Origin: Verrucomicrobiia bacterium
GTDB taxonomy: Bacteria; Verrucomicrobiota; Verrucomicrobiia; Palsa-1439
Length of the DNA stretch: 64,000 nucleotides
Assembly (NCBI GenBank): GCA_035501175.1
Contig: DATJWQ010000058.1
Location: forward strand, 213 to 64,212
Direction: 5' to 3'
In this document: positions 4,017 through 23,342 of the stretch, piece by piece
Layout: each line of letters begins with the position of its first letter
How positions within the stretch are numbered: the first letter of the stretch is position 1
Position numbers and translations under genes: made by a program
Notes under the pieces: model-generated
Told to the model about the DNA's origin: nothing
The model's database searches: none
The model's input: the letters and a program-made list of their open reading frames with translations, nothing else

Positions 4017-5474
4017 CTAGAACTTGACGTTCAGTTCCGCTCGGACTTCTTCCGCCGTGCGGCTTACGCCGGCGTTCTCATACGCGGTTCCGGGCAGGAA
4101 CGCCGCGTACACGAGCTGGGCGCGAACGTCCTTGCTGTAGTCGTAGCCAAGGATGCCGTCGATTTCCCAGCCGAGATAGGCGTCGTCCGCCGTGTTGCCA
4201 GCCGCGAGCTCGGCCCAGCGGGGGCCACCCCAGTCGACGTTGCCGTTGCTGCCGGCAAGGCCCATCTTGTCCGCCTTCATGTAGTAATAGCCCTCAACTG
4301 AGAGTGTCGTATTCTCGTACGGCTTCACCGACGCGCCCAGGTTGAAGATCGCAATGTCCGTCAGGGCGGGCATGAACAGATAGCCGTTGTACCCGTCAGC
4401 GTAATCGAACCACGGACGGAACTGGCCATTGCCAATTCCCTGATCGTCGGTTCCCTTGCCGCCGCCGGAGGCGTAGATGAAGTTTCCGTTGATAACCGGT
4501 ACCCATTGCACATCCTTGAACGTGAACTTGCCGCCCCCGTTCAACAGGAAGGCTCCGATCGTGCCGGAAGAATCTCCGCCGTTCGGTCCGCCATTGGCGC
4601 CAAACTCATACGCCGCTTCCCACCAGGTCTGCAGCGCATCCAAGGGATTGATATCGGCACGTAAACCGACAATCATCGGAGAGCTGGCTCCGTAGCTCGG
4701 AGGCACGCGGCTCGTGGTAAACGGACCCGTCCCAGGACCACCAAGGCCGCTGGAACTCTGTGAGAGATAACCAAAATACGCTTCAATATCCTTGAGCGCT
4801 GAATCGCTCAGCTCATACCGGGCATTGACGAACAGCAGATCGTTCCCGCCCAGATGGCTCGGCTCTCCGCCAAACGCCTGGTTGTTCACCACTTCGGCGC
4901 CGACGAGATCGATCGTCAATGGGTAGTAGTCGAGGACGAGACGAGCGGCATCATAATTGTATTCCTGCTCGACGCTGCTGAGAATCAGCCCGCGGCCGTA
5001 TTGCAGAAATTGCCGACCGAGCTTGAGCGTGGCCGGTGTGTAGAAGACTTCATTGAATTGAACATAGGCTTCCGCAATGCCCACGCCCCACATCCGGCTG
5101 ACCTTGCCGATATCGCTGGGACTGCTGGACGATTGTCCTGCTCCTGTTCCCGCGCCTACGGAGTCGGAAACGTCCGTGCTGCCCTGTCCCCATTCGCCTT
5201 CCGCCTGCAGGGTGACCACTACGAGCACATGGTCTTCGAGGTCCGCTTCACAGGAGACCCGGGTCCGCTGGGCAATGAACGACTCGTTGCCCTTGTACTG
5301 ACCCTCTGTTCCCTGCACGTTTCCCTCGTCGACGCTCTGCACCCCCGTGCTATCGAGAAAATACCCGCGGATTCGGATGTCCCCGCTAAGGCGGATATTC
5401 TGGACATCGGCGAAAGTCTTGCTGGCCAATCCCCCCAGGGTTGCCAGTGCGACTACTAGCCATAGTTTCTTCAC
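4017..5474 (-). CDS. Outer-membrane beta-barrel, alginate export (AlgE-like) family
   Basis: Signal peptide, SGDIRIRG, EAYVQF, LKLGRQFLQYGRGLIL, YLGWEID, C-terminal Phe; GTG 5474 with AAGGAGG RBS. Confidence 0.75.
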   Translation of the reverse strand: MKKLWLVVALATLGGLASKTFADVQNIRLSGDIRIRGYFLDSTGVQSVDEGNVQGTEGQYKGNESFIAQRTRVSCEADLEDHVLVVVTLQAEGEWGQGSTDVSDSVGAGTGAGQSSSSPSDIGKVSRMWGVGIAEAYVQFNEVFYTPATLKLGRQFLQYGRGLILSSVEQEYNYDAARLVLDYYPLTIDLVGAEVVNNQAFGGEPSHLGGNDLLFVNARYELSDSALKDIEAYFGYLSQSSSGLGGPGTGPFTTSRVPPSYGASSPMIVGLRADINPLDALQTWWEAAYEFGANGGPNGGDSSGTIGAFLLNGGGKFTFKDVQWVPVINGNFIYASGGGKGTDDQGIGNGQFRPWFDYADGYNGYLFMPALTDIAIFNLGASVKPYENTTLSVEGYYYMKADKMGLAGSNGNVDWGGPRWAELAAGNTADDAYLGWEIDGILGYDYSKDVRAQLVYAAFLPGTAYENAGVSRTAEEVRAELNVKF

Positions 5475-5785
5475 TGTGTCCTCCTTATGTTTGTTTACGT
5501 TCGTTGTGCTACACGCCACAAGTCTTTGATTTTCGTTCGTTTAGAGGGCCCGCGCCAACGACAATCCTCCATTGCCGTGGTACTACAAGAACGCCATCCC
5601 GAAGCGGAACTGAACCTCCCTCTCCTAACTGTTGTCGAGTATAGACCCGACCCAAATCGTGTCAAGCCCGTTTTCCGAGCGCTCCAGACCTGCCATGCGC
5701 ACTCGGGTCCAAACCGCTTCTGCCCAGGTCCTCTAACCGTCACGAGTATAAAAACGCGCCTGCGGAAGTCAAGCGGCCGAAATCA

Positions 5786-6499: not shown

Positions 6500-6740
6500 G
6501 AGTCTCCGTCAGTAATCAATTGTACCCGCTATTCTTCCCAATCCCACCCAAAAGGCAAGCGGGAAACTGCGCCAACCAAAAAGGCCACGTCCGTTCGCCC
6601 AGGCACCCTCGCCTCCTTCCCGCAAGCAATCCCCCAGGAACCTATCCTCGACGCCGATTGCGGCTCGCCTCTCAGTCCCCGTTGGTACCACACGACAGCT
6701 CGGGAAGGCAATTCCGCCGCGAAAACCTCGCCGACTTGCG

Positions 6741-6885
6741 CTCAAAAACCCAGAACGAAGCCAAACGAAGCCAATCACTTTTTCGACGGACCGATCTGCA
6801 CAACCCACTGCTGCTCAGCTACATCAAAGGATCCAAACCAGACAAAACCATTGGCTTCGTTTCGTAGTATATACCCCCCCAGCCA
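6741..6885. repeat. Intergenic AAACGAAGCCAA-motif element, copy A
   Basis: AACGAAGCCA at 6754-6763 and 6764-6773, inverted copy ATTGGCTTCGTTTCG at 6850-6864 next to TATA-C7; similar to 35128-35285. Confidence 0.65.
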
Positions 6886-7280: not shown

Positions 7281-8048
7281 TCAGGATACTCCTGTCGATC
7301 GTCTCCGCCGCCACTCCCGCCAGACCAATCGGAAAAATCCCATGTCGTCCCGCAGATACCGACGCCAGAGCCGACGCGGTTCCTGCGCCAAACGATACAG
7401 CCATTCCATGCCCACGCGCTGGACCCATTTCGGGGCGCGCTTGAGCACTCCCGCAGTCACATCGAAACTCCCACCCACGCCCATCACAAACGGCACGGCC
7501 ATTTCCTTCTTCCACTTACCCAAAAACAGTTCCTGCTTGGGCGAACCGACCGCCATGCACAGCACATCCGGCTTCACCCGCTTGATCTCGTCCACCACGC
7601 CCGCTTCTTCCTCGGGCTTCCAATAACCGTTCCGCCAGCCCGCAAATTCCAGCCTCGGATACCGGGCTTTCAGCACATCGACCGCCTTCGACACAATCTC
7701 CTGCCGCGCGCCCAACAGATACGGATGTAGCCCCCGTTCCGCGCACCGACCCATCAGCGCATCGAACAAATCCACGCCCGTCACCCGCTCCTTGATCGGG
7801 CAACCGAATAATCTCGACGCCCAGATCACCGGCTGGCCGTCCACCGTGATCAGATCGCAATCGAGCACCGTCTGACGCAAGCTCGGGTTGGTGTCCATCT
7901 TGACGAGCTTGTCGACGTTGACGACCACGTGCTGGTGAATCCCGCCGTCCTTGACCATCGCCTCGATCCGATCGAGGACCTCGGTCATGTTCAGGTTGTC
8001 GATGGGAATGCCAAACAGCGTGACCTTGTCTGAGGCAGGAGCATTCAC
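7281..8048 (-). CDS. WecB/TagA/CpsF (GT26) glycosyltransferase, copy 1
   Basis: VVNVDKL, DGQPV, RVTGVDL, NGY, GSPKQE, GVGGSFD, RAPKWVQRVGMEWLYRLAQEPRRLWRRY; GTG 8048 overlaps the wecB stop (GTGA). Confidence 0.92.
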   Translation of the reverse strand: MNAPASDKVTLFGIPIDNLNMTEVLDRIEAMVKDGGIHQHVVVNVDKLVKMDTNPSLRQTVLDCDLITVDGQPVIWASRLFGCPIKERVTGVDLFDALMGRCAERGLHPYLLGARQEIVSKAVDVLKARYPRLEFAGWRNGYWKPEEEAGVVDEIKRVKPDVLCMAVGSPKQELFLGKWKKEMAVPFVMGVGGSFDVTAGVLKRAPKWVQRVGMEWLYRLAQEPRRLWRRYLRDDMGFFRLVWREWRRRRSTGVS

Positions 8049-9151
8049 TTCCGAATCGGCAGCTCCAGTAAGCACTGTATGATCCGTGACGCCGCCTTCC
8101 CGTCCCAATACTTCGGCACACGCCCCTTCTTGCCCTTCCCGTCCAGAACTTTCGTGGCCTCGGCCACGATCTTGTCCCGATCCATCCCCACCAATGTGCT
8201 CGTCCCCTCCGTCACGGTCACGGGCCGGTCGGTGTTCTCGCGCAGCGTCAGGCACGGCACGCCCAACACGGTCGTTTCCTCCTGGATTCCGCCCGAATCG
8301 CTCAGCACCAGCTTCGCGCCAGTCATCAGACAGAGCGAATCGAGATAACCCAATGGCTCGACAAGCCGCAGGTTCGGCCATTCGCTGACCCGCTTCCAAA
8401 ACCCGAATTCGTTCAGCCGTGCCCGCGTCCGCGGATGGACCGGGAAGGCCAGCGGCAGCCGCTTCTGGATCGCTTCCAACGCCGACAAGATCCCCGCCAG
8501 CGTGTCTTTCGAATCGACGTTCCCCGGCCGATGCAACGTGACGTACCCGTATTCGGAATTCAGCCCGAGCTTTTGCCGAATGTCCGATTTCAAGCTTTCA
8601 TCGCGCAGCTTCAACAGCGTGTCGATCATCACGTTGCCGACGAAGAAAATCTTCTCCCTCGGCACCCCTTCCCGCAACAAATTCGCGTCCGCATCCGCGC
8701 ACGTCGTAAAGCAATAGTCGCTCAGCGCATCGGTCACGAGGCGGTTGATCTCCTCCGGCATCGTGCGGTCGAAACTCCGCAGACCCGCTTCCACGTGCGC
8801 CAGTGGGATGCACAATTTCGCCGCCACCAACGCCGCCGCCAGCGTGGAATTCACGTCGCCCACCACCATCACCAAATCCGGCCGCTGCGCCACGAGCAAC
8901 TTCTCCAGCTCGACCATCACCCGCGCAGTCTGCTCGGCGTGGGTGCCCGAGCCGACTCCCAGGTACACATCCGGTTTTGGCAGCCGCAACTGCTCGAAGA
9001 ACAGGTTCGACATGTTGTCGTCGTAATGCTGCCCCGTGTGCACCAGCACCGGCGCAAAATCGTCCGGATGACGCGCGTACTCCGCCATCAGCGGCGCCAT
9101 TTTCATGAAATTCGGCCGCGCGCCCACCACGTTGACGATCCGCATCTTCAT
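8045..9151 (-). CDS. wecB: UDP-N-acetylglucosamine 2-epimerase (non-hydrolyzing)
   Basis: VVGARPNFMK, HTGQHYD, GDVNS, HVEAGLRS, PEEINR, DSGGIQEE; ATGA overlap with the upstream gene. Confidence 0.95.
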   Translation of the reverse strand: MKMRIVNVVGARPNFMKMAPLMAEYARHPDDFAPVLVHTGQHYDDNMSNLFFEQLRLPKPDVYLGVGSGTHAEQTARVMVELEKLLVAQRPDLVMVVGDVNSTLAAALVAAKLCIPLAHVEAGLRSFDRTMPEEINRLVTDALSDYCFTTCADADANLLREGVPREKIFFVGNVMIDTLLKLRDESLKSDIRQKLGLNSEYGYVTLHRPGNVDSKDTLAGILSALEAIQKRLPLAFPVHPRTRARLNEFGFWKRVSEWPNLRLVEPLGYLDSLCLMTGAKLVLSDSGGIQEETTVLGVPCLTLRENTDRPVTVTEGTSTLVGMDRDKIVAEATKVLDGKGKKGRVPKYWDGKAASRIIQCLLELPIRK

Positions 9152-10176
9152 TTGTCTCGCTCGATTACCGCCAACAGTTCCGCCAGCGCGTAATACATCC
9201 ACGCTTGCGTCCACCGCATGTAACTCAATCGATTGATTCCACGGCGCCCGCGTTGATACCAGAAGAATCCCCGATTGTCCCACATGTTTTCCACCGCCCA
9301 GTTGGCGACGCGCACGGCGTCGTCCACCCGTCCGAATGCCAGGAACGTCACAATCCCTTGCGCGCTGCAATGGGTATCGAACGGATACTCCTCATTGTGA
9401 TAGTAGCGCGGCGCGCCATCCGTCCGCCAGAACGTCTTCTCCCAAAACGCAAACCCGCGCTCGGCGCTCCCGGCAAAATCAGGGTCGCCCGTCTTCGCTT
9501 CGTATTCCTTCAGCGCCACGAGGCTGTAGCCGGTGTGAAAATTGTCGATCCAATGCTGGTTCTCTGACTCGCCGTACCACCACGAACCATCCGCCCGCTG
9601 ACGCTTCACCGAAAATTCCATGCAATCCTTCCGACCCAGCAGCGCCGCCCCCACCATGTTCACGTTGTGCACCTGCGTGTCGGAATGCGCGATGTACTTC
9701 AGCCACCGTTCACCGTTCCGTTCGCACAACAAATCTCGTTCGAGAAAACTCACGTCGCAGGGCCGATTTATCCGCTCGTACGCCCGCGCCGCAAACGCCG
9801 TGCAAATCAGATTCGGCGTGCCGCGCGGCGCATAAAACGCGCGCGATTGCCACGCAAATGGATACGCCCATCCGCCTTCCGGCCCGCGCAACGATTCGAG
9901 TTGATCCAGGAGCCGTTCGTCGCGGCTTCCGAGCGCCGCGAGCGCCAGCGCTTTGGGATTCAGGCTCGGACGAATTCCGCACAGTGCCCGCAGATTGACC
10001 GGGCTGCGTCGATGCAATTGGGTCCAGGCCTGCCGCGCCAGTTTTCCCGGCAACAGCCCCGCCAGCGGCGAACTCAATCCGTCGTACGGGTCGTATCCCC
10101 GCCACCCGCGCATCGTCCCGTACTCGTGCAACTTCTGCCAAATCTCACGGAGCCGTTCGCGTTCAGCCGGTTTCAT
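9148..10176 (-). CDS. Conserved hypothetical protein of polysaccharide loci, probable (alpha/alpha) toroid fold
   Basis: GYDPYDG, WAYPFAWQSR, PNLICT, VHNVN, WIDNFHTGY, DTHCSAQGI, YMRWTQAWM; coupled into the operon; start uncertain (10176, 10200 or 10227). Confidence 0.65.
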   Translation of the reverse strand: MKPAERERLREIWQKLHEYGTMRGWRGYDPYDGLSSPLAGLLPGKLARQAWTQLHRRSPVNLRALCGIRPSLNPKALALAALGSRDERLLDQLESLRGPEGGWAYPFAWQSRAFYAPRGTPNLICTAFAARAYERINRPCDVSFLERDLLCERNGERWLKYIAHSDTQVHNVNMVGAALLGRKDCMEFSVKRQRADGSWWYGESENQHWIDNFHTGYSLVALKEYEAKTGDPDFAGSAERGFAFWEKTFWRTDGAPRYYHNEEYPFDTHCSAQGIVTFLAFGRVDDAVRVANWAVENMWDNRGFFWYQRGRRGINRLSYMRWTQAWMYYALAELLAVIERDK

Positions 10177-10257
10177 CAGCAGCGGTAGTGTATCATTCAC
10201 CTCGGAGCCGGCCAATCGCCTCCGCACACGGCGTCCCGCCCAACGGGTCCGCCGTAC

Positions 10258-11049
10258 TTACTTTGCCGCTCCCACAAATTTGTCCTGCTTCCACAGTCCG
10301 CTCTCCACCTTGTCGTTGGGATATGTCATCTTGCCCGCGCCGTCCATCTTCCCGTCGCGGAATTGCCCGACGTATTTGCGGCCATCGGGCCACGTCATCG
10401 TCCCGGTGCCGTCCGGCAAATCGGTCATCCCGTTGGTCACCTTCCAGTCTCCAACGTACCGCCGCCCGTCCTTCCAGCGTATGCTCCCGCTGTTGTGGGA
10501 GCCGTCGGTGTTCCACGTGCCGTCTTCTCGGGTGCCATCCAAACCGATCAAGGTTCCGCTGACCTTGTATTCATTGCCCGCGCGCCACTCGCCTTGCTGG
10601 ATCGTTCCATTGGGCGCTGTCACCTCTCCCATCCCATCGGGTCGACCGTTCTTGAATTCCCCGCTGTACTGCCGGCCGTCCGGCGCGGTGCTGGTTCCCT
10701 GACCATTGGGCTGCCCGTCGCGAAGCTCACCGACATACTTCCTGCCGTCCGGTGACGTAATCGTGCCTTTCCCATTCGGTTGGCCATCCTTAAACTCGCT
10801 CACATACTTCGTACCATTTGGCATCGTGCTCACACCCTGGCCATTCGGCCTGCCATTCTTGAATTCACCCACGTACTCCGCGCCGCTCGGCAGGATCTCC
10901 GTCCCATGGCCCTCGGGCTTGCCGTTCTTCATTTCGCCAATGTATTTCGCCCCGTTCGGCAACGTGTTCGTGACCTGCCCGAGGCACGTGCCAACAAGCA
11001 CGGACGCCGCAGAAATTGTCGAAAGCAACCACGCGAATCTGTTTATCAT
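10258..11049 (-). CDS. Exported MORN-repeat protein
   Basis: Signal peptide, then repeated (K/E)Y(V/I/S)GE(F/M/L)(K/R)(N/D)GxPxGxG units; AGGAG RBS before ATG 11049. Confidence 0.88.
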   Translation of the reverse strand: MINRFAWLLSTISAASVLVGTCLGQVTNTLPNGAKYIGEMKNGKPEGHGTEILPSGAEYVGEFKNGRPNGQGVSTMPNGTKYVSEFKDGQPNGKGTITSPDGRKYVGELRDGQPNGQGTSTAPDGRQYSGEFKNGRPDGMGEVTAPNGTIQQGEWRAGNEYKVSGTLIGLDGTREDGTWNTDGSHNSGSIRWKDGRRYVGDWKVTNGMTDLPDGTGTMTWPDGRKYVGQFRDGKMDGAGKMTYPNDKVESGLWKQDKFVGAAK

Positions 11050-11067
11050 GTTGTCTCCTGACACCCG

Positions 11068-13143
11068 TTACAATTCAATCGCCCGTCCTGTCCGAATCGA
11101 TTCCACCACTGCCAGCGTCGCCCGCGTGCTGTCCACGATTTCCTCCAGCGGAATCGGCATCGGCCCGCCAGTTTTGACCGCGTGCACAAACTGCCTCACT
11201 TCTTCCGCCTGGCCCTTGTCGCGAAAATCGTCCACCACCACATGCCGGCCGCCACCAAACGCTTCGAAGTGTTCCTTGCCCAGCGACGCATCCGCGACGT
11301 CAAAGTAATCGATCGATCCCACCGATCCGTCGGCGAACCGAATCGCCACCTGGACGTTCTCGCCGCCGAATCCCTGCGCGAAGACCGACACGATTCGGGA
11401 CCGGGCGGCGAACCGCAGGAAATCGATAAAATGGCACGCTTCCGCAAGAATGCGCCCGCCGCCCGCCTCGGGGTCGTTGATCCAATGATCCGCCGGCAGC
11501 GGCTGCACGCTGACGCGATATCGCATCACCAGGGGCCCGGCCAATTCCCGCGCCTTCGCCGCAAACGGAGCAAAGCGTCGATTGAACCCCACCATCAACC
11601 GCCAATTCCCGCTCTTCTGGATTGCCTCGGCAATTCCATCAAGCTCTTCCCGGCGCAGACACAGCGGCTTTTCGCAGAATACCGCCTTCCCGGCCCGCAA
11701 CGCTTCGACAACGATCCTGGCGTGCAAATCGTGCCGCGTCGCAATCACCACGGTGTTGATCGTTTTGTCCGCCAGTACATCCCGCCAATTGGTCGTGCTC
11801 GTTTCAAATCCAAATTTGTCCTTCGCCTTTTCCGCCTTCACCCCGGTCGCCGTGCACACTGTCCGCAACGTCACGTCCCCATTCGTTCTGAACTGGGGCA
11901 ACAATACACCTTGCGCGTAATGCCCCGCCCCGATCACGCCCACGCTTACCGGGGACGACGCCCGGCCTACCGACGATCGCTGCAGGGTCGCCACTGATTG
12001 CGTCGCGCCGCCCTTGCTCTCGGGATACTGCAGCAATACACCGACAAATCGTTGCTCGGTCTTCCCCGTAATCAATTCGTATGCCTTGGCCGCGTCCTGA
12101 ATCGGAAACGTGTGCGTCATTAATGGCGCAACGTCCACGCGCCGGCCCGCCAGCAACTGAACGAACGCCTCCATGTTCCGCTGCTCCGTCCAGCGCACGT
12201 ACCCAATCGGATAATCCACACCCTTCTCTTCGTACAGCGGATCGTAGCGGCCCGGGCCGTAACTGCGGGACAACCGGAACTCGAGTTCCTTCTCGTAAAA
12301 CATATCGCGCGGAAGCTCCATCCCTGTCACGCCCACCATCACCACCCGCCCGCGCTCCCGACAAATCTTCGCGGCCAACTCGATGGGGTCATTCGTCGGC
12401 GCCGCGGCGGTGATGATCGCCGCATCCACACCGAACTCATTCGTCAATCGCGCCGCCAACCGCTCAACATCACCGCTCGTCCGCGTCGCCACCGCGTCGC
12501 ACCCGCAGCGCTTCGCCAGTTCGCACGCCTCGGCGCTGACGTCGACCCCCAATACCACGCAACCCGCCGCCTTCGCAATCTGCACGGTCAATTGTCCGAC
12601 CAAACCCAGACCGATCACCGCAACAGATTCACCAAGACGCACGTCCGCCTGCCGCACACCTTGCATCGCAATCGCACCCAGGGTCGTAAATGCCGCGTGT
12701 TCCAACGGCACGCCGTCCGGCACCCTGGCGCAAAGATTCTGCGGAACCACCACCTCCTCGGCATGGCTCGCGTAATCCTGTCCGCCGCAGGCCACGCGGT
12801 CGCCGACGGACAACCCCGTTACGCCTTCGCCAACCTCGACGATCGTCCCCGCGCATGAGTAACCGAGCGCTTTCCATTGATCGAGGCGCGACTGGACCTT
12901 CCGCACCGCGGCGGAAATCCCTTCGCGTTTCACCGTGTCGAGAACGCGCCTGACCAGATCGGGTCGCGACCGCGCCTTGCCGACGAGCGATTGCTGCGCG
13001 AGACTGACCGTGGCGCGCTCCGTCCCCGCGCTGACCAGGGAGAACGCGTTGCGCACACGCACACTGCCCGGCGCCAGCGCCGGTGACGGCACATCCACCA
13101 GCTTGATGTCACCGGTCTTGAAGTCCTGGACGAGTTGTTTCAC
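11068..13143 (-). CDS. Bi-domain oxidoreductase (Zn-ADH/MDR fused to Gfo/Idh/MocA)
   Basis: SAGTE, GYSCAG, IGLGLVG, SRSYGPGRYD in the N-domain; IGAGHYA, ATRHDLH, CEKPL, VGFNRRF in the C-domain. Confidence 0.9.
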   Translation of the reverse strand: MKQLVQDFKTGDIKLVDVPSPALAPGSVRVRNAFSLVSAGTERATVSLAQQSLVGKARSRPDLVRRVLDTVKREGISAAVRKVQSRLDQWKALGYSCAGTIVEVGEGVTGLSVGDRVACGGQDYASHAEEVVVPQNLCARVPDGVPLEHAAFTTLGAIAMQGVRQADVRLGESVAVIGLGLVGQLTVQIAKAAGCVVLGVDVSAEACELAKRCGCDAVATRTSGDVERLAARLTNEFGVDAAIITAAAPTNDPIELAAKICRERGRVVMVGVTGMELPRDMFYEKELEFRLSRSYGPGRYDPLYEEKGVDYPIGYVRWTEQRNMEAFVQLLAGRRVDVAPLMTHTFPIQDAAKAYELITGKTEQRFVGVLLQYPESKGGATQSVATLQRSSVGRASSPVSVGVIGAGHYAQGVLLPQFRTNGDVTLRTVCTATGVKAEKAKDKFGFETSTTNWRDVLADKTINTVVIATRHDLHARIVVEALRAGKAVFCEKPLCLRREELDGIAEAIQKSGNWRLMVGFNRRFAPFAAKARELAGPLVMRYRVSVQPLPADHWINDPEAGGGRILAEACHFIDFLRFAARSRIVSVFAQGFGGENVQVAIRFADGSVGSIDYFDVADASLGKEHFEAFGGGRHVVVDDFRDKGQAEEVRQFVHAVKTGGPMPIPLEEIVDSTRATLAVVESIRTGRAIEL

Positions 13144-18723: not shown

Positions 18724-18851
18724 AAGCGGAATGAAACGAGTAAACCGCAACCGGCTCTGCACGAATACGTTCCATTAATGAGACGGCCCAAATGCGGCGC
18801 CGCCAACACGATGCAGCGCAATCTACAGTCTGCTGTTCGCCAAATGCCCGC

Positions 18852-19841
18852 TCAGGCCACTTTGGCGCTCTTCATCGACGACTTGACCTGCGTCTCGATC
18901 CAGGCGTACGTGCGAGCCATGCCGTCTTCGAGGGAAATCTCGGGCTCCCATTTGAGGACCTCACGAAGCTTCGTGTTGTCCGAGTTGCGACCCCGCACGC
19001 CCTGGGGACCATCAATGTGCTTCTTGTTGACCGTGATGCCGGCAATCTTGGCCGCCATGTCGGCAAGCTGATTGATTGTCACCATCCGGTCCTGGCCCAG
19101 ATTCAACGGATCGCGGTGGTCGGAACGCATCAGCTTGTAGATGCCGTTGACGCAATCATCGATGTAACAGAACGACCGGGTTTGTTCGCCGTCGCCCCAG
19201 ATTTCAATTTCGTGTTTGCCGGTAAGCTTGGCGATCGCCACCTTGCGGCACATCGCCGCCGGCGCTTTCTCGCGTCCGCCATCCCACGTTCCCAGCGGAC
19301 CGAAAATATTATGGAACCGCACGATGCGCGTCTCCAGTCCATAGTCCTGCCGATAATGCATGCAAGCGCGCTCGGTGATGAGTTTTTCCCAGCCGTATGC
19401 ATCCTGCGGATACGCGGGATAGGCGTCGTCCTCCTTCAACGGGACCACGTTGGCATCCATCTGTTTGAACTCAGGGTAGATACAGGCCGACGATGTGTAG
19501 AAGTAGCGTTTGACGCTGTTCACGTGCGCGGCGTCCAGCGTGTGAATGTTGATCAGCAAATTGTTGTGCAGAATCAGCGCATGATGGTGCGAGATGAATC
19601 CCATCCCGCCCATGTCGGCCGCCAACGCGTACACTTCGTCCACGCCACGCGTCGCCTGCAAGCAGTTGTCCCACCGCCGCAGATCCAAAACCTCAAACTC
19701 GTCGGCATCCGTCGGGGAGTATTCCGGGTACTTGAGGTCAACGCCCCGTACCCAATAGCCCTTGCCCTTGAGAAACGTCACCAGATGATGGCCGATAAAC
19801 CCACCGGCGCCGGTCACGAGTACCTTGGTCTGCTCTTTCAC
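18852..19841 (-). CDS. GDP-mannose 3,5-epimerase-like NAD-dependent epimerase
   Basis: GAGGFIG, LAADMGGMGFI, TSSACIYP, PQDAYGWEK, RFHNIFGP, GGREKAPAAMCRK, IWGDGEQTRSF; GTG 19841 with AAGGGAG RBS. Confidence 0.85.
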   Translation of the reverse strand: MKEQTKVLVTGAGGFIGHHLVTFLKGKGYWVRGVDLKYPEYSPTDADEFEVLDLRRWDNCLQATRGVDEVYALAADMGGMGFISHHHALILHNNLLINIHTLDAAHVNSVKRYFYTSSACIYPEFKQMDANVVPLKEDDAYPAYPQDAYGWEKLITERACMHYRQDYGLETRIVRFHNIFGPLGTWDGGREKAPAAMCRKVAIAKLTGKHEIEIWGDGEQTRSFCYIDDCVNGIYKLMRSDHRDPLNLGQDRMVTINQLADMAAKIAGITVNKKHIDGPQGVRGRNSDNTKLREVLKWEPEISLEDGMARTYAWIETQVKSSMKSAKVA

Positions 19842-20079
19842 AATATCTCCCTTGTTCGTCGGTTCGGCCACGGCGATTCTTGACCCGGATGGGGCATCTG
19901 CGGAGGAAATTCTGCCTCACGATCCGCTGGCATTCTGACGGTCCGCTGTCGCGGTACCCGCCCTCACCGACGATTTTGTTTCCTGGCTTGCTTTCCCTGT
20001 CGTTCGCCGCGACGAAACACCGTCGCGAGCGAATCAGTTGATTGGACAATATATCAGCGAGAACTGCTCAAGACAAGGC

Positions 20080-21240
20080 TCATTTGCCGCTTTTGAGCGT
20101 TGTCCCACCTGCAACGCAACGCTTTCCATCGGCCAGCGCAAGCGTCTCAAATACGCGAATGATCCGTTCACCGTATCGGTCCTGGGTGAAGAACTCGTCG
20201 AACCGTCGTCGATTGGCCTGCCTCATCCCCTCGCGCAACGACGAGTCACGGATGATCCTCAGAATCTTCTCCGCGAGATCGCCAGCGTCACGCGGTGTTG
20301 CCAACAGCCCATTCACCCCATCCTTCACCATCTCGGGAATGGCCGCCCATTTCGTCGAGATCACCGGCAGCCCGGCCCACATCGCCTCGACGACCACCAG
20401 CGGATGCACCTCCATGTAGTAATACGATGGGAACACCAGCGCATCAGCGTCCACGAGCAACTGCCATTTGCGCTCGCCCCAAACCACACCCGCAAACGAT
20501 ACATTCTTGTCGATCCCCCACTCCCGAATCTTCTGCTCGGCCTCGATCCGATCGCTCGGCAACGGCCAATCACCCGCGAAAATGAACCGCGCATCGGGAT
20601 ACGCTTTCACGACCCTGGCTGCCGCTTCCAGGAGAACAAACACACCCTTCTCCCGAATCAGGTTGCCGAGAAATAGCCCCGTGAACGGTCCGCCCGCCGG
20701 GGCAGACCGCTGGGGAAGCGGCGGGGCCTCGATGCCGCTGGCCACGACAAAAATCCGATCCGCCGGCAGCCATTGGTCGAAATTGAACCGTTGTCCCTCG
20801 CCCATCACGATGGCGCCTGCGGAATTTCTGACCGTCTTCTCGATTCGCCGCTGCATTCCCGGTGAGGATTTTTTGTAGAAATCCAGAAAGCCGTTGGCGT
20901 GCGCGTACAACACCGCTGGCACGCCGAACAGACCGGCGACGCGAATGAGAAGCCATTCTTTGAGAAACGCATTCCGGTTGCAGGAGACAGACAGAAACAA
21001 ATAGTCGTACCTGCGGCGAATCAGGCGGCCAAACATCTGACATACCATCCTCGCCAGCAACAGCAGCTTGCGCGGGTGAAGACGTTCGAGTTCGCCAACC
21101 TTCTTGATAACGGTCTGATCGATGAACGCGACCTCGAATCGCTCGGGGAACGCCGAGTGCATCAGCGCCGAATACGTCACGCTCGGTCCGAAATAAGGAG
21201 GCGGCAAATGCCCCACCACCAGAAGCCGTAATTTCCGCAT
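20080..21240 (-). CDS. GT4 (GT-B) glycosyltransferase
   Basis: LGNLIREKG, FPSYYYMEVHPLVVVEAM, GLPVIST, GVNGLL. Confidence 0.88.
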   Translation of the reverse strand: MRKLRLLVVGHLPPPYFGPSVTYSALMHSAFPERFEVAFIDQTVIKKVGELERLHPRKLLLLARMVCQMFGRLIRRRYDYLFLSVSCNRNAFLKEWLLIRVAGLFGVPAVLYAHANGFLDFYKKSSPGMQRRIEKTVRNSAGAIVMGEGQRFNFDQWLPADRIFVVASGIEAPPLPQRSAPAGGPFTGLFLGNLIREKGVFVLLEAAARVVKAYPDARFIFAGDWPLPSDRIEAEQKIREWGIDKNVSFAGVVWGERKWQLLVDADALVFPSYYYMEVHPLVVVEAMWAGLPVISTKWAAIPEMVKDGVNGLLATPRDAGDLAEKILRIIRDSSLREGMRQANRRRFDEFFTQDRYGERIIRVFETLALADGKRCVAGGTTLKSGK

Positions 21241-21293
21241 TTCCACCGCGGAATGCTACACACAACCCCCGGGAATGTCTAGATGCCGGCGGA

Positions 21294-21331
21294 AACACGA
21301 ATTACACGCAAGAGACACGAAGTACACGAAT
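21294..21331. repeat. Short ACACG(A/C)A tandem-like repeat, 4 units
   Basis: AACACGAATTACACGCAAGAGACACGAAGTACACGAAT. Confidence 0.5.
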
Positions 21332-21414
21332 GCGGACATCTGCGTCTTGAGTTTATGGATGGTTTGCGGTATCCAACGATTATCGAGCTTGCGGAGCCGC
21401 TCGCCCGTCGGGGT

Positions 21415-21437
21415 GACTCAGCTTTGGATTGTTAGAC
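21415..21437 (+). mobile_element. 3' half of an attC site (L' box GACTCAGC, R' core GTTAGAC)
   Basis: GTTRRRY at 21431-21437, 5 nt before the cassette ATG; L' complementary to the L'' of the downstream half-site. Confidence 0.65.
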
Positions 21438-21442
21438 GTCAT

Positions 21443-22246
21443 ATGCTCACATCTCTTCGACATCAGGCCACAGCCCGCTCAAAACCAGTTGCCGACGAAT
21501 TGGCAAACCTCGGTTGGGTAGTGCTTAGAGAGATACCGGCACGCTTGGGAGATGACGGACCTCGCGGTTACGTGCTTGAGTGGATTGGAGCCGGTGAGCC
21601 ACCAGGCCTTGATCTCATACGGAAGGGCGCGCCGGTTGCCGATCTACTCTCCGCAAATCAACGTAACACGATTATTGCGGAGCACCTTCGGGAGCACCTT
21701 CCGCCTACAGGTCTCACGGAGATCTCGTCTCGACGCTGGATCGACGGTTCCAAGCCGCCAGTCAGACGCTTGTTCGAAATTGCACTTCTTAAGGGTGCGA
21801 GCCTGCGGGCGGAGTGGGGATTCTCATTGGATTTTGTTCCGCACATTTCAGCCGGGAGGGTTAAGTGGCATCGCTCCGATAAGTCTGCCAGGTTCGATAT
21901 CATAGTCAGCGGATGCGAATTTAATCTGGTGGAACCATGCTTTCTTTTCGGACCGGCCCATCTCGCAGAGGACTTGCGGAAGCTCCTGCGTCATGCTGTT
22001 GCTCTGGCTGAAGAGACTTGGAAGAAGGGCGCGACCATCGACGGTATGTATGAGATCATTCGCGAGAAGCGCGCGCGGTATGGAGGGCTTTGTGATATTT
22101 CACCCGTTTTTGCATTTCTCGCAGCAAAGACTGGCGATATTGAGGCAAGCAGAAAAGAACTGGCTCGCTACATCAAGTTTCATAACTTGGATGAGAAAGA
22201 GGCAGCCAAGCTTCAAAAGGCCTTGACTGCGTCCACTGGTGCCTAA
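21443..22246 (+). CDS. Hypothetical cassette-encoded protein (267 aa)
   Basis: Open frame; ATG just after the attC core; no recognisable catalytic motif; ORF-track extension to 21275 rejected. Confidence 0.6.
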   Translation: MLTSLRHQATARSKPVADELANLGWVVLREIPARLGDDGPRGYVLEWIGAGEPPGLDLIRKGAPVADLLSANQRNTIIAEHLREHLPPTGLTEISSRRWIDGSKPPVRRLFEIALLKGASLRAEWGFSLDFVPHISAGRVKWHRSDKSARFDIIVSGCEFNLVEPCFLFGPAHLAEDLRKLLRHAVALAEETWKKGATIDGMYEIIREKRARYGGLCDISPVFAFLAAKTGDIEASRKELARYIKFHNLDEKEAAKLQKALTASTGA

Positions 22247-22295
22247 CAGATCGCTGTAGCCAACACGGGATGGCGCGATCAGTTCCACCGTCGCA
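22241..22295 (+). mobile_element. 5' half of an attC site (R'' GCCTAAC, L'' GCTG[T]AGCC), apparently truncated
   Basis: RYYYAAC, 5-nt spacer, then an L box with an extra base; no matching GTTAGGC downstream before galE. Confidence 0.65.
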
Positions 22296-22373
22296 GGCGT
22301 AGCGTAAGGCCGAGAAAACCGCTTCGCGACAAAGTTCTTGCCGCCAACCGGATCGCCCGCTACAAGACTGCAC

Positions 22374-23342
22374 ATGAAAGTCTTTGTCACCGGCGGGGCC
22401 GGCTACGTGGGAAGCGTGTGCGTTGAGGAATTGCTCAACGCGGGATATCAGGTCGTGGTGTTCGACAACCTGAGCGAGGGACATCGTGCCGCAGTCGATC
22501 AACGGGCAGAGTTTCTCGAGGGCGACCTGAAGAACCGGCCCTTCGTGCTGGAGAGTTTCCAGCGGTTGCGCCCCGATGCCGTGATGCATTTCGCCTCGAA
22601 CACGCTCGTCGGCGCCAGCATGACGAACCCGGGCATTTACCTCGGTGACAATATTTCCAATGCCATCAACCTGCTCGACGCGTGCGTCGCGGCGGGCACG
22701 AAACATTTTGTGTTCTCGTCCAGTTGCGCCATTTTTGGCGTTCCCAAGACCGAGTTCATCACCGAGGACCTCCCGAAGAACCCGATCAACCCCTACGGCG
22801 AGTCCAAGCTGATGGTGGAGAGAATCCTGGCATGGTACGAAAAGCTCTTCGGGATCCGCTACGTGTGTTTGCGTTACTTCAACGCCGCCGGCGCGTCGGA
22901 GAAGTTTGGCGAACATCACCGCGAAGAGACGCACCTGATCCCCAACGTCCTGAAAGTCGCACTCGGGCAGAAGCCGGCGGTCGATATTTATGGCACGCAC
23001 TACCCCACACCCGACGGCACCTGCATCCGCGATTACGTCCACATCATCGACCTGGCGCAGGCCCACCGGCTCGCGGTCAGCGCGACGCACTCGGATGTAT
23101 TCAACCTGGGCAGCGGCGATGGGTATTCGGTGAAACAGATCGTCGAGATGGCCCGCAACGTCTCCGGGCGCACGATCAACGCCGTGGAAAAACCGAACCG
23201 CCCCGGCGACCCGCCACGGCTCGTGGCCGATTCGACCAAGGTCCGCAAGGTGCTCGGTTGGAAACCGCGATTTGATTCCGTCGAGTCGATCCTCGAAAGC
23301 GCGTGGCGCTGGCACCTCGCCCACCCCAACGGCTACGAGTAG
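22374..23342 (+). CDS. galE: UDP-glucose 4-epimerase
   Basis: GGAGYVGS, FSSSCA, PINPYGESK, LRYFNAAGA, GEHH, HLIP, DGTCIRDYVH, RPGDP. Confidence 0.92.
   Translation: MKVFVTGGAGYVGSVCVEELLNAGYQVVVFDNLSEGHRAAVDQRAEFLEGDLKNRPFVLESFQRLRPDAVMHFASNTLVGASMTNPGIYLGDNISNAINLLDACVAAGTKHFVFSSSCAIFGVPKTEFITEDLPKNPINPYGESKLMVERILAWYEKLFGIRYVCLRYFNAAGASEKFGEHHREETHLIPNVLKVALGQKPAVDIYGTHYPTPDGTCIRDYVHIIDLAQAHRLAVSATHSDVFNLGSGDGYSVKQIVEMARNVSGRTINAVEKPNRPGDPPRLVADSTKVRKVLGWKPRFDSVESILESAWRWHLAHPNGYE

Follow-up and report, generated by a model that had tools for sequence, protein, structure and literature searches.

A gene lodged between two divergently oriented polysaccharide genes of a Verrucomicrobiia bacterium probably derives from an integron cassette of the type known from bacteria of the Planctomycetes-Verrucomicrobia-Chlamydiae (PVC) group, stranded without an integrase. 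The gene, referred to below as the cargo gene, lies in a stretch of 64,000 nucleotides (GenBank assembly GCA_035501175.1, contig DATJWQ010000058.1, positions 213 to 64,212 of the forward strand), here called the window, over which the host genome was searched; all coordinates are those of the window unless another locus is named. A preliminary description made from the letters of the sequence had read the open reading frame (ORF) as an orphan cassette, captured and immobilised between truncated attC recombination sites. The motifs it quoted are all found where it had placed them, the 267-aa ORF and the identity of its flanks, a group 1 glycosyltransferase and a GalE-like protein, are confirmed, and its interpretation of a cassette-derived, immobilised gene is largely supported. 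In particular, the core of the idea, a cassette left with a truncated attC and without the integron integrase IntI, is supported.

The evidence that carries this reading lies at the 3' end of the gene, where the TAA stop codon (22244-22246) is contained in the box GCCTAAC (R'', 22241-22247), followed by the spacer AGATC and by the L'' box GCTGTAGC (22253-22261 reads GCTGTAGCC). Degenerate boxes of seven nucleotides are common on the plus strand of the window (GTTRRRY 0.58 per kb, RYYYAAC 0.73 per kb) and are uninformative alone, so an objective model was used, namely the attC model that Ghaly et al. published for Planctomycetes (2021; Supplementary Data 1 of PMC8352920), an Infernal file with a hidden Markov model (HMM) part whose consensus begins with GCCUAAC-AAuGC-GUUGCAgC and ends with GCUGAaC-UucGuC-GUUAGGC. 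The right site was scored as the ungapped log-odds of model positions 1-20 of the emission profile, on both strands, and 22241-22260 ranks first of 127,962 positions with 15.8 bits and an exact P of 1.1e-6 per position. R'' contributes 11.6 bits, the spacer –2.2 and L'' 6.4, and the probability of the spacer and L'' together, once R'' is given, is 1.5e-3. Furthermore, among the 45 long ORFs of the window only the cargo ORF carries RYYYAAC on its stop codon. The right half-site is real and statistically solid, far beyond chance. The search program nhmmer aligns model positions 1-37 to 22241-22276; downstream of the half-site no GTTRRRY is present within 160 nt and no 3' half was found, in agreement with the earlier claim that the right site keeps its 5' half only. 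A reading of the downstream flank as a site with a deleted variable terminal structure, for which an L' partner such as GCTAAGC was sought, gave nothing convincing.

The L'' box is taken up in a local hairpin of 40 nt (fold –9.4/–10 kcal/mol, z = –2.2), which is unique in the window. The preliminary description had paired this downstream L'' box with the upstream L' box and had seen in the pair a standard attC geometry; the pairing is invalid, since an attC has both of its boxes to one side of an ORF, and L'' finds its partner within the hairpin instead. The hairpin is not a canonical attC, being 48 nt at most, with no unpaired spacer and with GTTCCAC at its 3' end. That these 48 nt (22241-22288, from GCCTAAC to GTTCCAC) form a complete miniature attC, usable by an integrase in trans, and that the gene is thus a functional single cassette, is extremely improbable: the AAC/GTT pairing does close the hairpin, but the element is shorter than the class 1 sites compared (60-114 nt) and, to our knowledge, shorter than any attC, of which the shortest measures about 57 nt. 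Moreover, it lacks the unpaired central spacer, its GTTCCAC fails GTTRRRY and pairs with R'' through AAC/GTT only, and it is matched neither by nhmmer nor by the class 1 covariance model R1 described below.

The left side is weak, and of the left site R' alone has some support. The earlier description had claimed a retained 3' half here. For GTTAGAC together with the base before it the profile gives 8.4 bits (P = 6.8e-4), and the proposed L' box (GACTCAGC at 21415-21422; ACTCAGC in the model register) reaches 0.2 bits (P = 0.03) and is not supported. The spacing of GTTAGAC-N5-ATG is that seen at the homologue loci L001, L036 and L022.

These loci provide the second line of evidence. In L001, a contig of a Pirellulales metagenome-assembled genome (MAG), the Planctomycetes model yields one full-length attC (4800-4892, E = 6e-7) and the start of a second one at 6625-6668 (E = 0.004), in which GCCTAAC lies on the TAA stop codon of the homologue, arranged as in the window, while GTTAGGC-N5-ATG precedes the same gene. 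GTTAGGC and GCCTAAC are exact reverse complements of each other, a relation that the ends of a single cassette should show. In L039 (1527-1580) GCCTAAC is again on the stop codon and leads into an imperfect hairpin of about 100 nt (z = –3.6); L039, L022 and L036 are, like L001, Pirellulales contigs, and the stop-codon sites of homologues in such contigs open imperfect hairpins of about 90-100 nt. Upstream of other homologues, attC 3' halves score 14.7 bits (L022) and 14.4 bits (L036) and end with GTTAGGA or GTTAGGC-N5-ATG, and the sequence similarity among L001, L022 and L036 starts at the GTT. Because of the attC sites at L001, L039, L022 and L036, at least one clade of the protein family is, as judged from these sequences, integron cargo. 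In addition, the contig of the homologue P0031 (JGI 3300047160, 20,395 bp) holds a run of eight co-oriented small ORFs of 68-281 aa with spacers of 79-159 nt, which includes the member of the cargo family and three ORFs of the glyoxalase family and which looks, from the layout of its ORFs, like an integron cassette array. Eleven distinct homologue contexts were fetched and all are unlike that of the window, the sole repeat among them being L037 and L040. At the homologue locus L013, a very stable hairpin of 90 nt (6729-6818, z = –5 to –6) stands 108 nt past the stop codon of the homologue with an attC-like layout, GCTCAAC-TGCGC-TTGTCAACGA...TCGTTGACAA-TGCTC-GTTGAGC; it was rejected as an attC, since it lacks an extrahelical base and neither of the two attC models matches it.

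Coincidence would make the cargo gene an accessory gene with no integron history, flanked by short degenerate boxes of a kind that recur every 1-2 kb. It might appeal to the frequencies given above, to the three GTTRRRY present within 21431-21860, to the failure of every model to find a full attC and to the negligible score of the L' box. Nevertheless it is very unlikely, since it would have to let the 20-nt 5' half that scores best among some 128,000 positions fall right on the stop codon of the one ORF in 45 that carries the motif there, at the position at which the attC-model matches of L001 and L039 start as well, and to reproduce upstream the R'-N5-ATG spacing of three homologue loci.

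Several observations weigh against a cassette origin, the first being that the window contains no complete attC, as judged by covariance model R1, by the HMM and by a rule-based scan. The HMM was the 103-node layer of the Planctomycetes model, re-typed from the supplement and run with nhmmer with its covariance part unused; as a control, it recovers class 1 attC sites at up to 27 bits. At the right half-site its local score is just 1.7 bits (E = 17 in 128 kb), which is low because most of the model is missing there. R1, built from eight trimmed class 1 attC cores of plasmid integrons, recovers held-out class 1 sites with 19-49 bits and, with filters off, finds nothing above 10 bits in the window, nor anything at the candidate sites of the homologue loci in Planctomycetes; its narrow class 1 basis gives these negatives little weight. 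For the rule-based attC scanner, some two matches per 64 kb are background, a level that the window does not exceed; its sole match (19434-19554) lies in coding sequence conserved in the related locus L016 and was treated as chance. On the left side, besides the unsupported L' box, GTTAGRC-N5-ATG overlaps the purine run of Shine-Dalgarno type expected at the ribosome-binding position, so that part of the similarity could be translational, and the conserved domain of the protein begins only 64 codons past the ATG at 21443. Finally, neither P0002, which at 66% identity is the closest homologue, nor P0005 from Verrucomicrobiota shows an attC half at its stop codon. An integrase gene, which the preliminary description had reported as missing, is indeed not found in the 64-kb window (tblastn of IntI1, best E = 2.2 over 41 aa), and Rfam gives nothing at the gathering threshold in the whole window or at E of 5 or below in 21200-22400.

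That the gene is an insertion with respect to the closest relative, in line with the proposed capture, is supported by comparison with relatives, which are Verrucomicrobiia MAGs. The left neighbour, a GT4-type glycosyltransferase (GT4), is 79-86% identical in amino acids to its counterparts in L015, L016, L018 and L019, and the cluster that it shares with galE also includes WecG/TagA, Bac_transf and GT2 genes. Homology to the relatives stops at about 21289-21295, in the short spacer between GT4 and galE, and picks up again at about 22329, leaving extra DNA from about 21290 to 22328 (Table 1). In the closest relative, L018, the two genes are only about 105 bp apart, an empty site (L018 3931-3957). 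L015 and L019 carry in the same slot a class I S-adenosylmethionine-dependent methyltransferase gene (L015 5076-5900, minus strand) and L016 an ORF of 150 aa with zinc-ribbon and transmembrane features on the other strand (5238-5690, plus). The slot between GT4 and galE is therefore a variable spot, with three different inserts and one empty state. A profile search of the relatives' DNA revealed no attC signal at the other occupants. The composition of the cargo gene is foreign, as the suggested comparison with the flanks demonstrates: the GC content at third codon positions (GC3) is 0.47-0.57 in the gene vs 0.71 in GT4 and 0.81 in galE. The extra DNA reaches about 140 nt beyond the GTT on the left side and about 70 nt beyond the L'' box on the right, and thus the junctions are not those of a clean IntI insertion at the G/TT crossover point.

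Table 1. Features of the slot between GT4 and galE, in window coordinates
Feature	Position	Strand	Detail
GT4 glycosyltransferase group 1, left flank	20080..21246	-	Pfam Glycos_transf_1, E = 1e-34
Intergenic block next to GT4, common to all relatives	21247..21289	.	blastn and alignment
Unique 56 nt, left end of the extra DNA	21290..21345	+	Absent from L015, L016 and L018
Non-coding leader, 81 nt	21346..21426	+	85% identity with the leader that precedes the homologue P0005
GTTAGAC, putative R' core and 5' cassette boundary	21431..21437	+	Followed by 5 nt (gtcat) and ATG 21443
Cargo ORF	21443..22246	+	267 aa (start ATG 21443) or 224 aa (start GTG 21572)
attC 5' half: R'' GCCTAAC, spacer AGATC, L'' GCTGTAGC	22241..22260	+	15.8 bits, Planctomycetes attC profile
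Local 40-nt hairpin taking in the L'' box	22245..22284	+	AAC-A-GATCGC-tgta-GCCA-loop-TGGC-GCGATC-A-GTT
Native galE leader, where homology to relatives resumes (AAAG(AG/TT)CTTGC...)	22329..22373	+	
GalE-like NAD-dependent epimerase, right flank	22374..23342	+	Pfam Epimerase, E = 4e-57

A promoter-like site for GT4 is present at 21281-21253 on the minus strand. The unique 56 nt contain four ACACG(A/C)A repeats, found only in the insert of the window, at 21295, 21304, 21315 and 21324 with a spacing of 9-11 nt; they could form a regulator-binding array and are followed by a small hairpin at 21330-21345. Elsewhere in the polysaccharide cluster, an ORF of 363 aa (18792-19883, plus strand) conserved in L016 and L018 has no Pfam or NCBIfam match and a GC3 of 0.58, below that of its neighbours; it may be a membrane protein of polymerase or ligase type.

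Between the unique 56 nt and the putative R' lies the leader of 81 nt, whose counterpart precedes the gene of P0005 (L011-L013 5895-5975, L014 3750-3830; blastn E = 4e-13 to 2e-20; local alignment score 102, equalled in none of 300 shuffles). L011-L014 are Verrucomicrobiota as well, in that a protein encoded nearby shares 93-95% identity with proteins from MAGs of this phylum. The leaders are conserved to the extent given in Table 1 though the proteins of the window and P0005 are just about 52% identical, which argues that the leader is under a constraint of its own. It holds the L' box of the preliminary description and ATCCAAC, it was not found upstream of the Planctomycete homologues, and it has no Rfam match and no significant fold. 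Positions 21355-21395 (GGTTTGCGG-N16-GAGCTTGCGG) resemble the spacer of the empty site in L018 (GGTTTGCGG-N17-GAGCTTGCGG; as good in 2 of 500 shuffles). The leader may contain a promoter (TTGAGT-17-TATCCA) or a site of recombination or regulation, and in L013 it is followed by TTTGTC-TAGGCC, resembling an attC spacer and an R' without its GT. A full attC of 67 nt, from ATCCAAC at 21371 to GTTAGAC at 21437, was considered here and rejected, both for its lack of a hairpin fold (z = –0.9 to –1.7) and for the homology of the stretch to the L018 spacer and the L013 leader. Finally, an imperfect direct repeat brackets the gene (CTTGCGG at 21389-21395, CTTGCCG at 22336-22342). Given this repeat and the resemblance of part of the leader to the L018 spacer, L018 could be either a pristine empty site or, judging from its sequence, a deletion derivative.

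These features of the locus can also be explained by ordinary mosaicism. The gene and its leader might be an accessory module of Verrucomicrobiota that was swapped in by homologous recombination between the conserved flanks, like the methyltransferase gene of L015, or that is ancestral and was deleted in L018 between the CTTGCGG and CTTGCCG repeats, the attC traces being very old and irrelevant to its presence here. Such mosaicism would suit the three inserts and one empty state seen among relatives that are 76-84% identical in nucleotides, the other occupants without attC signal, the leader held in common with another locus of Verrucomicrobiota, the agreement of the window with L018 at all four positions at which the window and L013 differ, the likeness of the L018 spacer to part of the leader and the direct repeat. 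It is compatible with a cassette origin, though, and bears on the last step only; moreover, it leaves the high-scoring R''-L'' on the stop codon unexplained unless cassette ancestry is accepted. As a full account of the gene we consider it rather unlikely.

A history that joins a cassette origin with the features of the locus can be proposed. The cassette would have moved out of an integron and been deprived of the distal portion of its attC, with the consequence that IntI could no longer excise it; then, within Verrucomicrobiota, the leader and the gene would have travelled together by ordinary illegitimate or homology-assisted recombination. The last step was probably ordinary recombination of this kind within Verrucomicrobiota, and not IntI activity, and its own leader probably drives transcription of the gene, which is co-directional with galE. 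A bolder proposal stems from a leader that is conserved, echoed in the L018 spacer and bounded by CTTGCGG and CTTGCCG: it might belong to an insertion or homing module not described before, or be a regulatory element, by which Verrucomicrobia could re-mobilise former integron cassettes without an integrase, with a toxin-like cargo of new fold that is paired with Phd/YefM in some lineages. We regard this as quite improbable.

The start of the cargo gene deserves some caution. Besides the two readings of Table 1, of which the one from GTG 21572 (224 aa) is the public gene call, a longer reading from 21275 gives 323 aa. Similarity to the family sets in near codon 66 of the 267-aa ORF, at about 21635, and no homologue has a counterpart of the 64 codons that separate the cassette-type ATG from the conserved domain (21443-21634), so that the true start codon is uncertain. 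This stretch may be an N-terminal extension, an insertion or an untranslated leader; the first 43 codons of the 267-aa reading have a GC3 of 0.47.

The family itself comprises 60 close homologues and, in a profile search, at least 705 representatives (clusters at 50% identity); its members are all unnamed, measure about 205-225 aa and carry the invariant motif WGFSLDFVPH..WHR. An AlphaFold model built on an alignment of 58 sequences is confident (predicted local distance difference test, pLDDT, 90.4; predicted template modelling score, pTM, 0.84) and predicts an N-terminal helix, an antiparallel sheet that bears the invariant motif and a C-terminal bundle of five helices; the product is thus modelled as a two-domain protein, with an N-terminal alpha/beta sheet in which His, Asp and Arg are conserved and a C-terminal helical bundle. 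The Foldseek comparison recommended earlier brought no match at E of 0.001 or below in the Protein Data Bank (PDB) or in BFVD, and sequence profiles of Pfam, NCBIfam, PADLOC and PDB gave no informative match, apart from weak echoes of TPR and DUF6415 in the helical part. No family member was present among the IMG/VR viral contigs scanned.

As for function, the preliminary description had suggested an immunity or defence role, which remains a guess: PADLOC has no match for the protein at E of 1 or below, placement in defence islands is inconsistent, and the only hint comes from one lineage in which a homologue adjoins an antitoxin gene. In L037/L038 a gap of 6 nt separates the homologue from the Phd/YefM antitoxin gene upstream of it (L037 4737-5618), the pair being located between an acyl-CoA dehydrogenase gene and gyrB-dnaN-dnaA; in L040 (9723-10528), which is syntenic with L037, both genes look decayed, with an ORF of 41 aa and an N-terminally truncated homologue of 175 aa. 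This adjacency is confined to one lineage, the gene of the window stands alone, as do most homologues, and the window holds no antitoxin-like ORF. Other homologues have as neighbours HigB/HTH (L003), Mrr (L007), Uma2 or fragments of insertion sequences, and in L001 a Gabija-like pair (7839-11485), made of an OLD-family TOPRIM/AAA ATPase and a UvrD-like helicase, is found just downstream of the homologue; defence or toxin-antitoxin (TA) genes are sometimes, not consistently, near the family. A stress- or conflict-related effector, for example a toxin-like partner, may be put forward as a low-confidence guess, and a role as a polysaccharide enzyme appears unlikely.

If the proposed history is correct, the window offers, by comparison with an empty site, a case of an integron cassette fixed outside an integron with half of an attC kept, in a phylum whose integron biology has barely been studied. 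Relics of this kind would be missed by standard tools that need a complete attC, and cassette-derived genes are therefore probably under-counted. Moreover, the gene draws attention to a sizeable uncharacterised protein family, for whose confidently predicted fold no relative is known among solved structures or viral proteins, and provides a testable hint of TA biology.

Several known systems are instructive for comparison. TA pairs are common integron cargo, and the homologue that follows a Phd/YefM gene by 6 nt recalls type II TA systems of that class; unlike these, the window copy is solo and the protein has no similarity to known toxins, and 205-225 aa is large for the usual Phd/YefM partners (Doc, YoeB/RelE/ParE). 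The variable slots of polysaccharide loci of O-antigen or capsule type are similar in their differing genes in relatives, conserved flanks and low-GC inserts, but the occupant of the window has no glycosyltransferase, modification or transport domain and has instead end motifs of integron type. As in CALIN, groups of attC sites that have no integron-integrase with them, defined by at least two complete attC sites within 4 kb where an integrase is lacking, and as in isolated attC sites, for which cassette degradation has been proposed as one source (PMC4889954), cassette-type DNA is here found away from any integrase. Even an isolated site is one complete attC, though, and the window has none; the label of CALIN, or of a single attC site lacking an integron-integrase (SALIN), that had been attached to the gene does not apply, and IntegronFinder would probably report nothing in the window. 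A last parallel is with cassettes of the sedentary chromosomal integrons of Planctomycetes, a group in which integrons are documented together with a taxon-specific attC model (PMC8352920), as they are in Verrucomicrobia (PMC4889954). The window differs in that its host is a Verrucomicrobium, that only model positions of about 1-37 are present, without a 3' L'-R', an array or an integrase, and that the extra DNA exceeds the cassette boundaries on both sides. On the other hand, its R'' GCCTAAC is the consensus of the model, its spacer of 5 nt ends in the conserved C, its L'' GCTGTAGC matches the conserved G13, U15, extrahelical G16, A18 and C20, and, as in those cassettes, its stop codon lies inside R'', GTTAGAC stands just before the putative start codon and its homologues are found beside attC sites recognised by the model.

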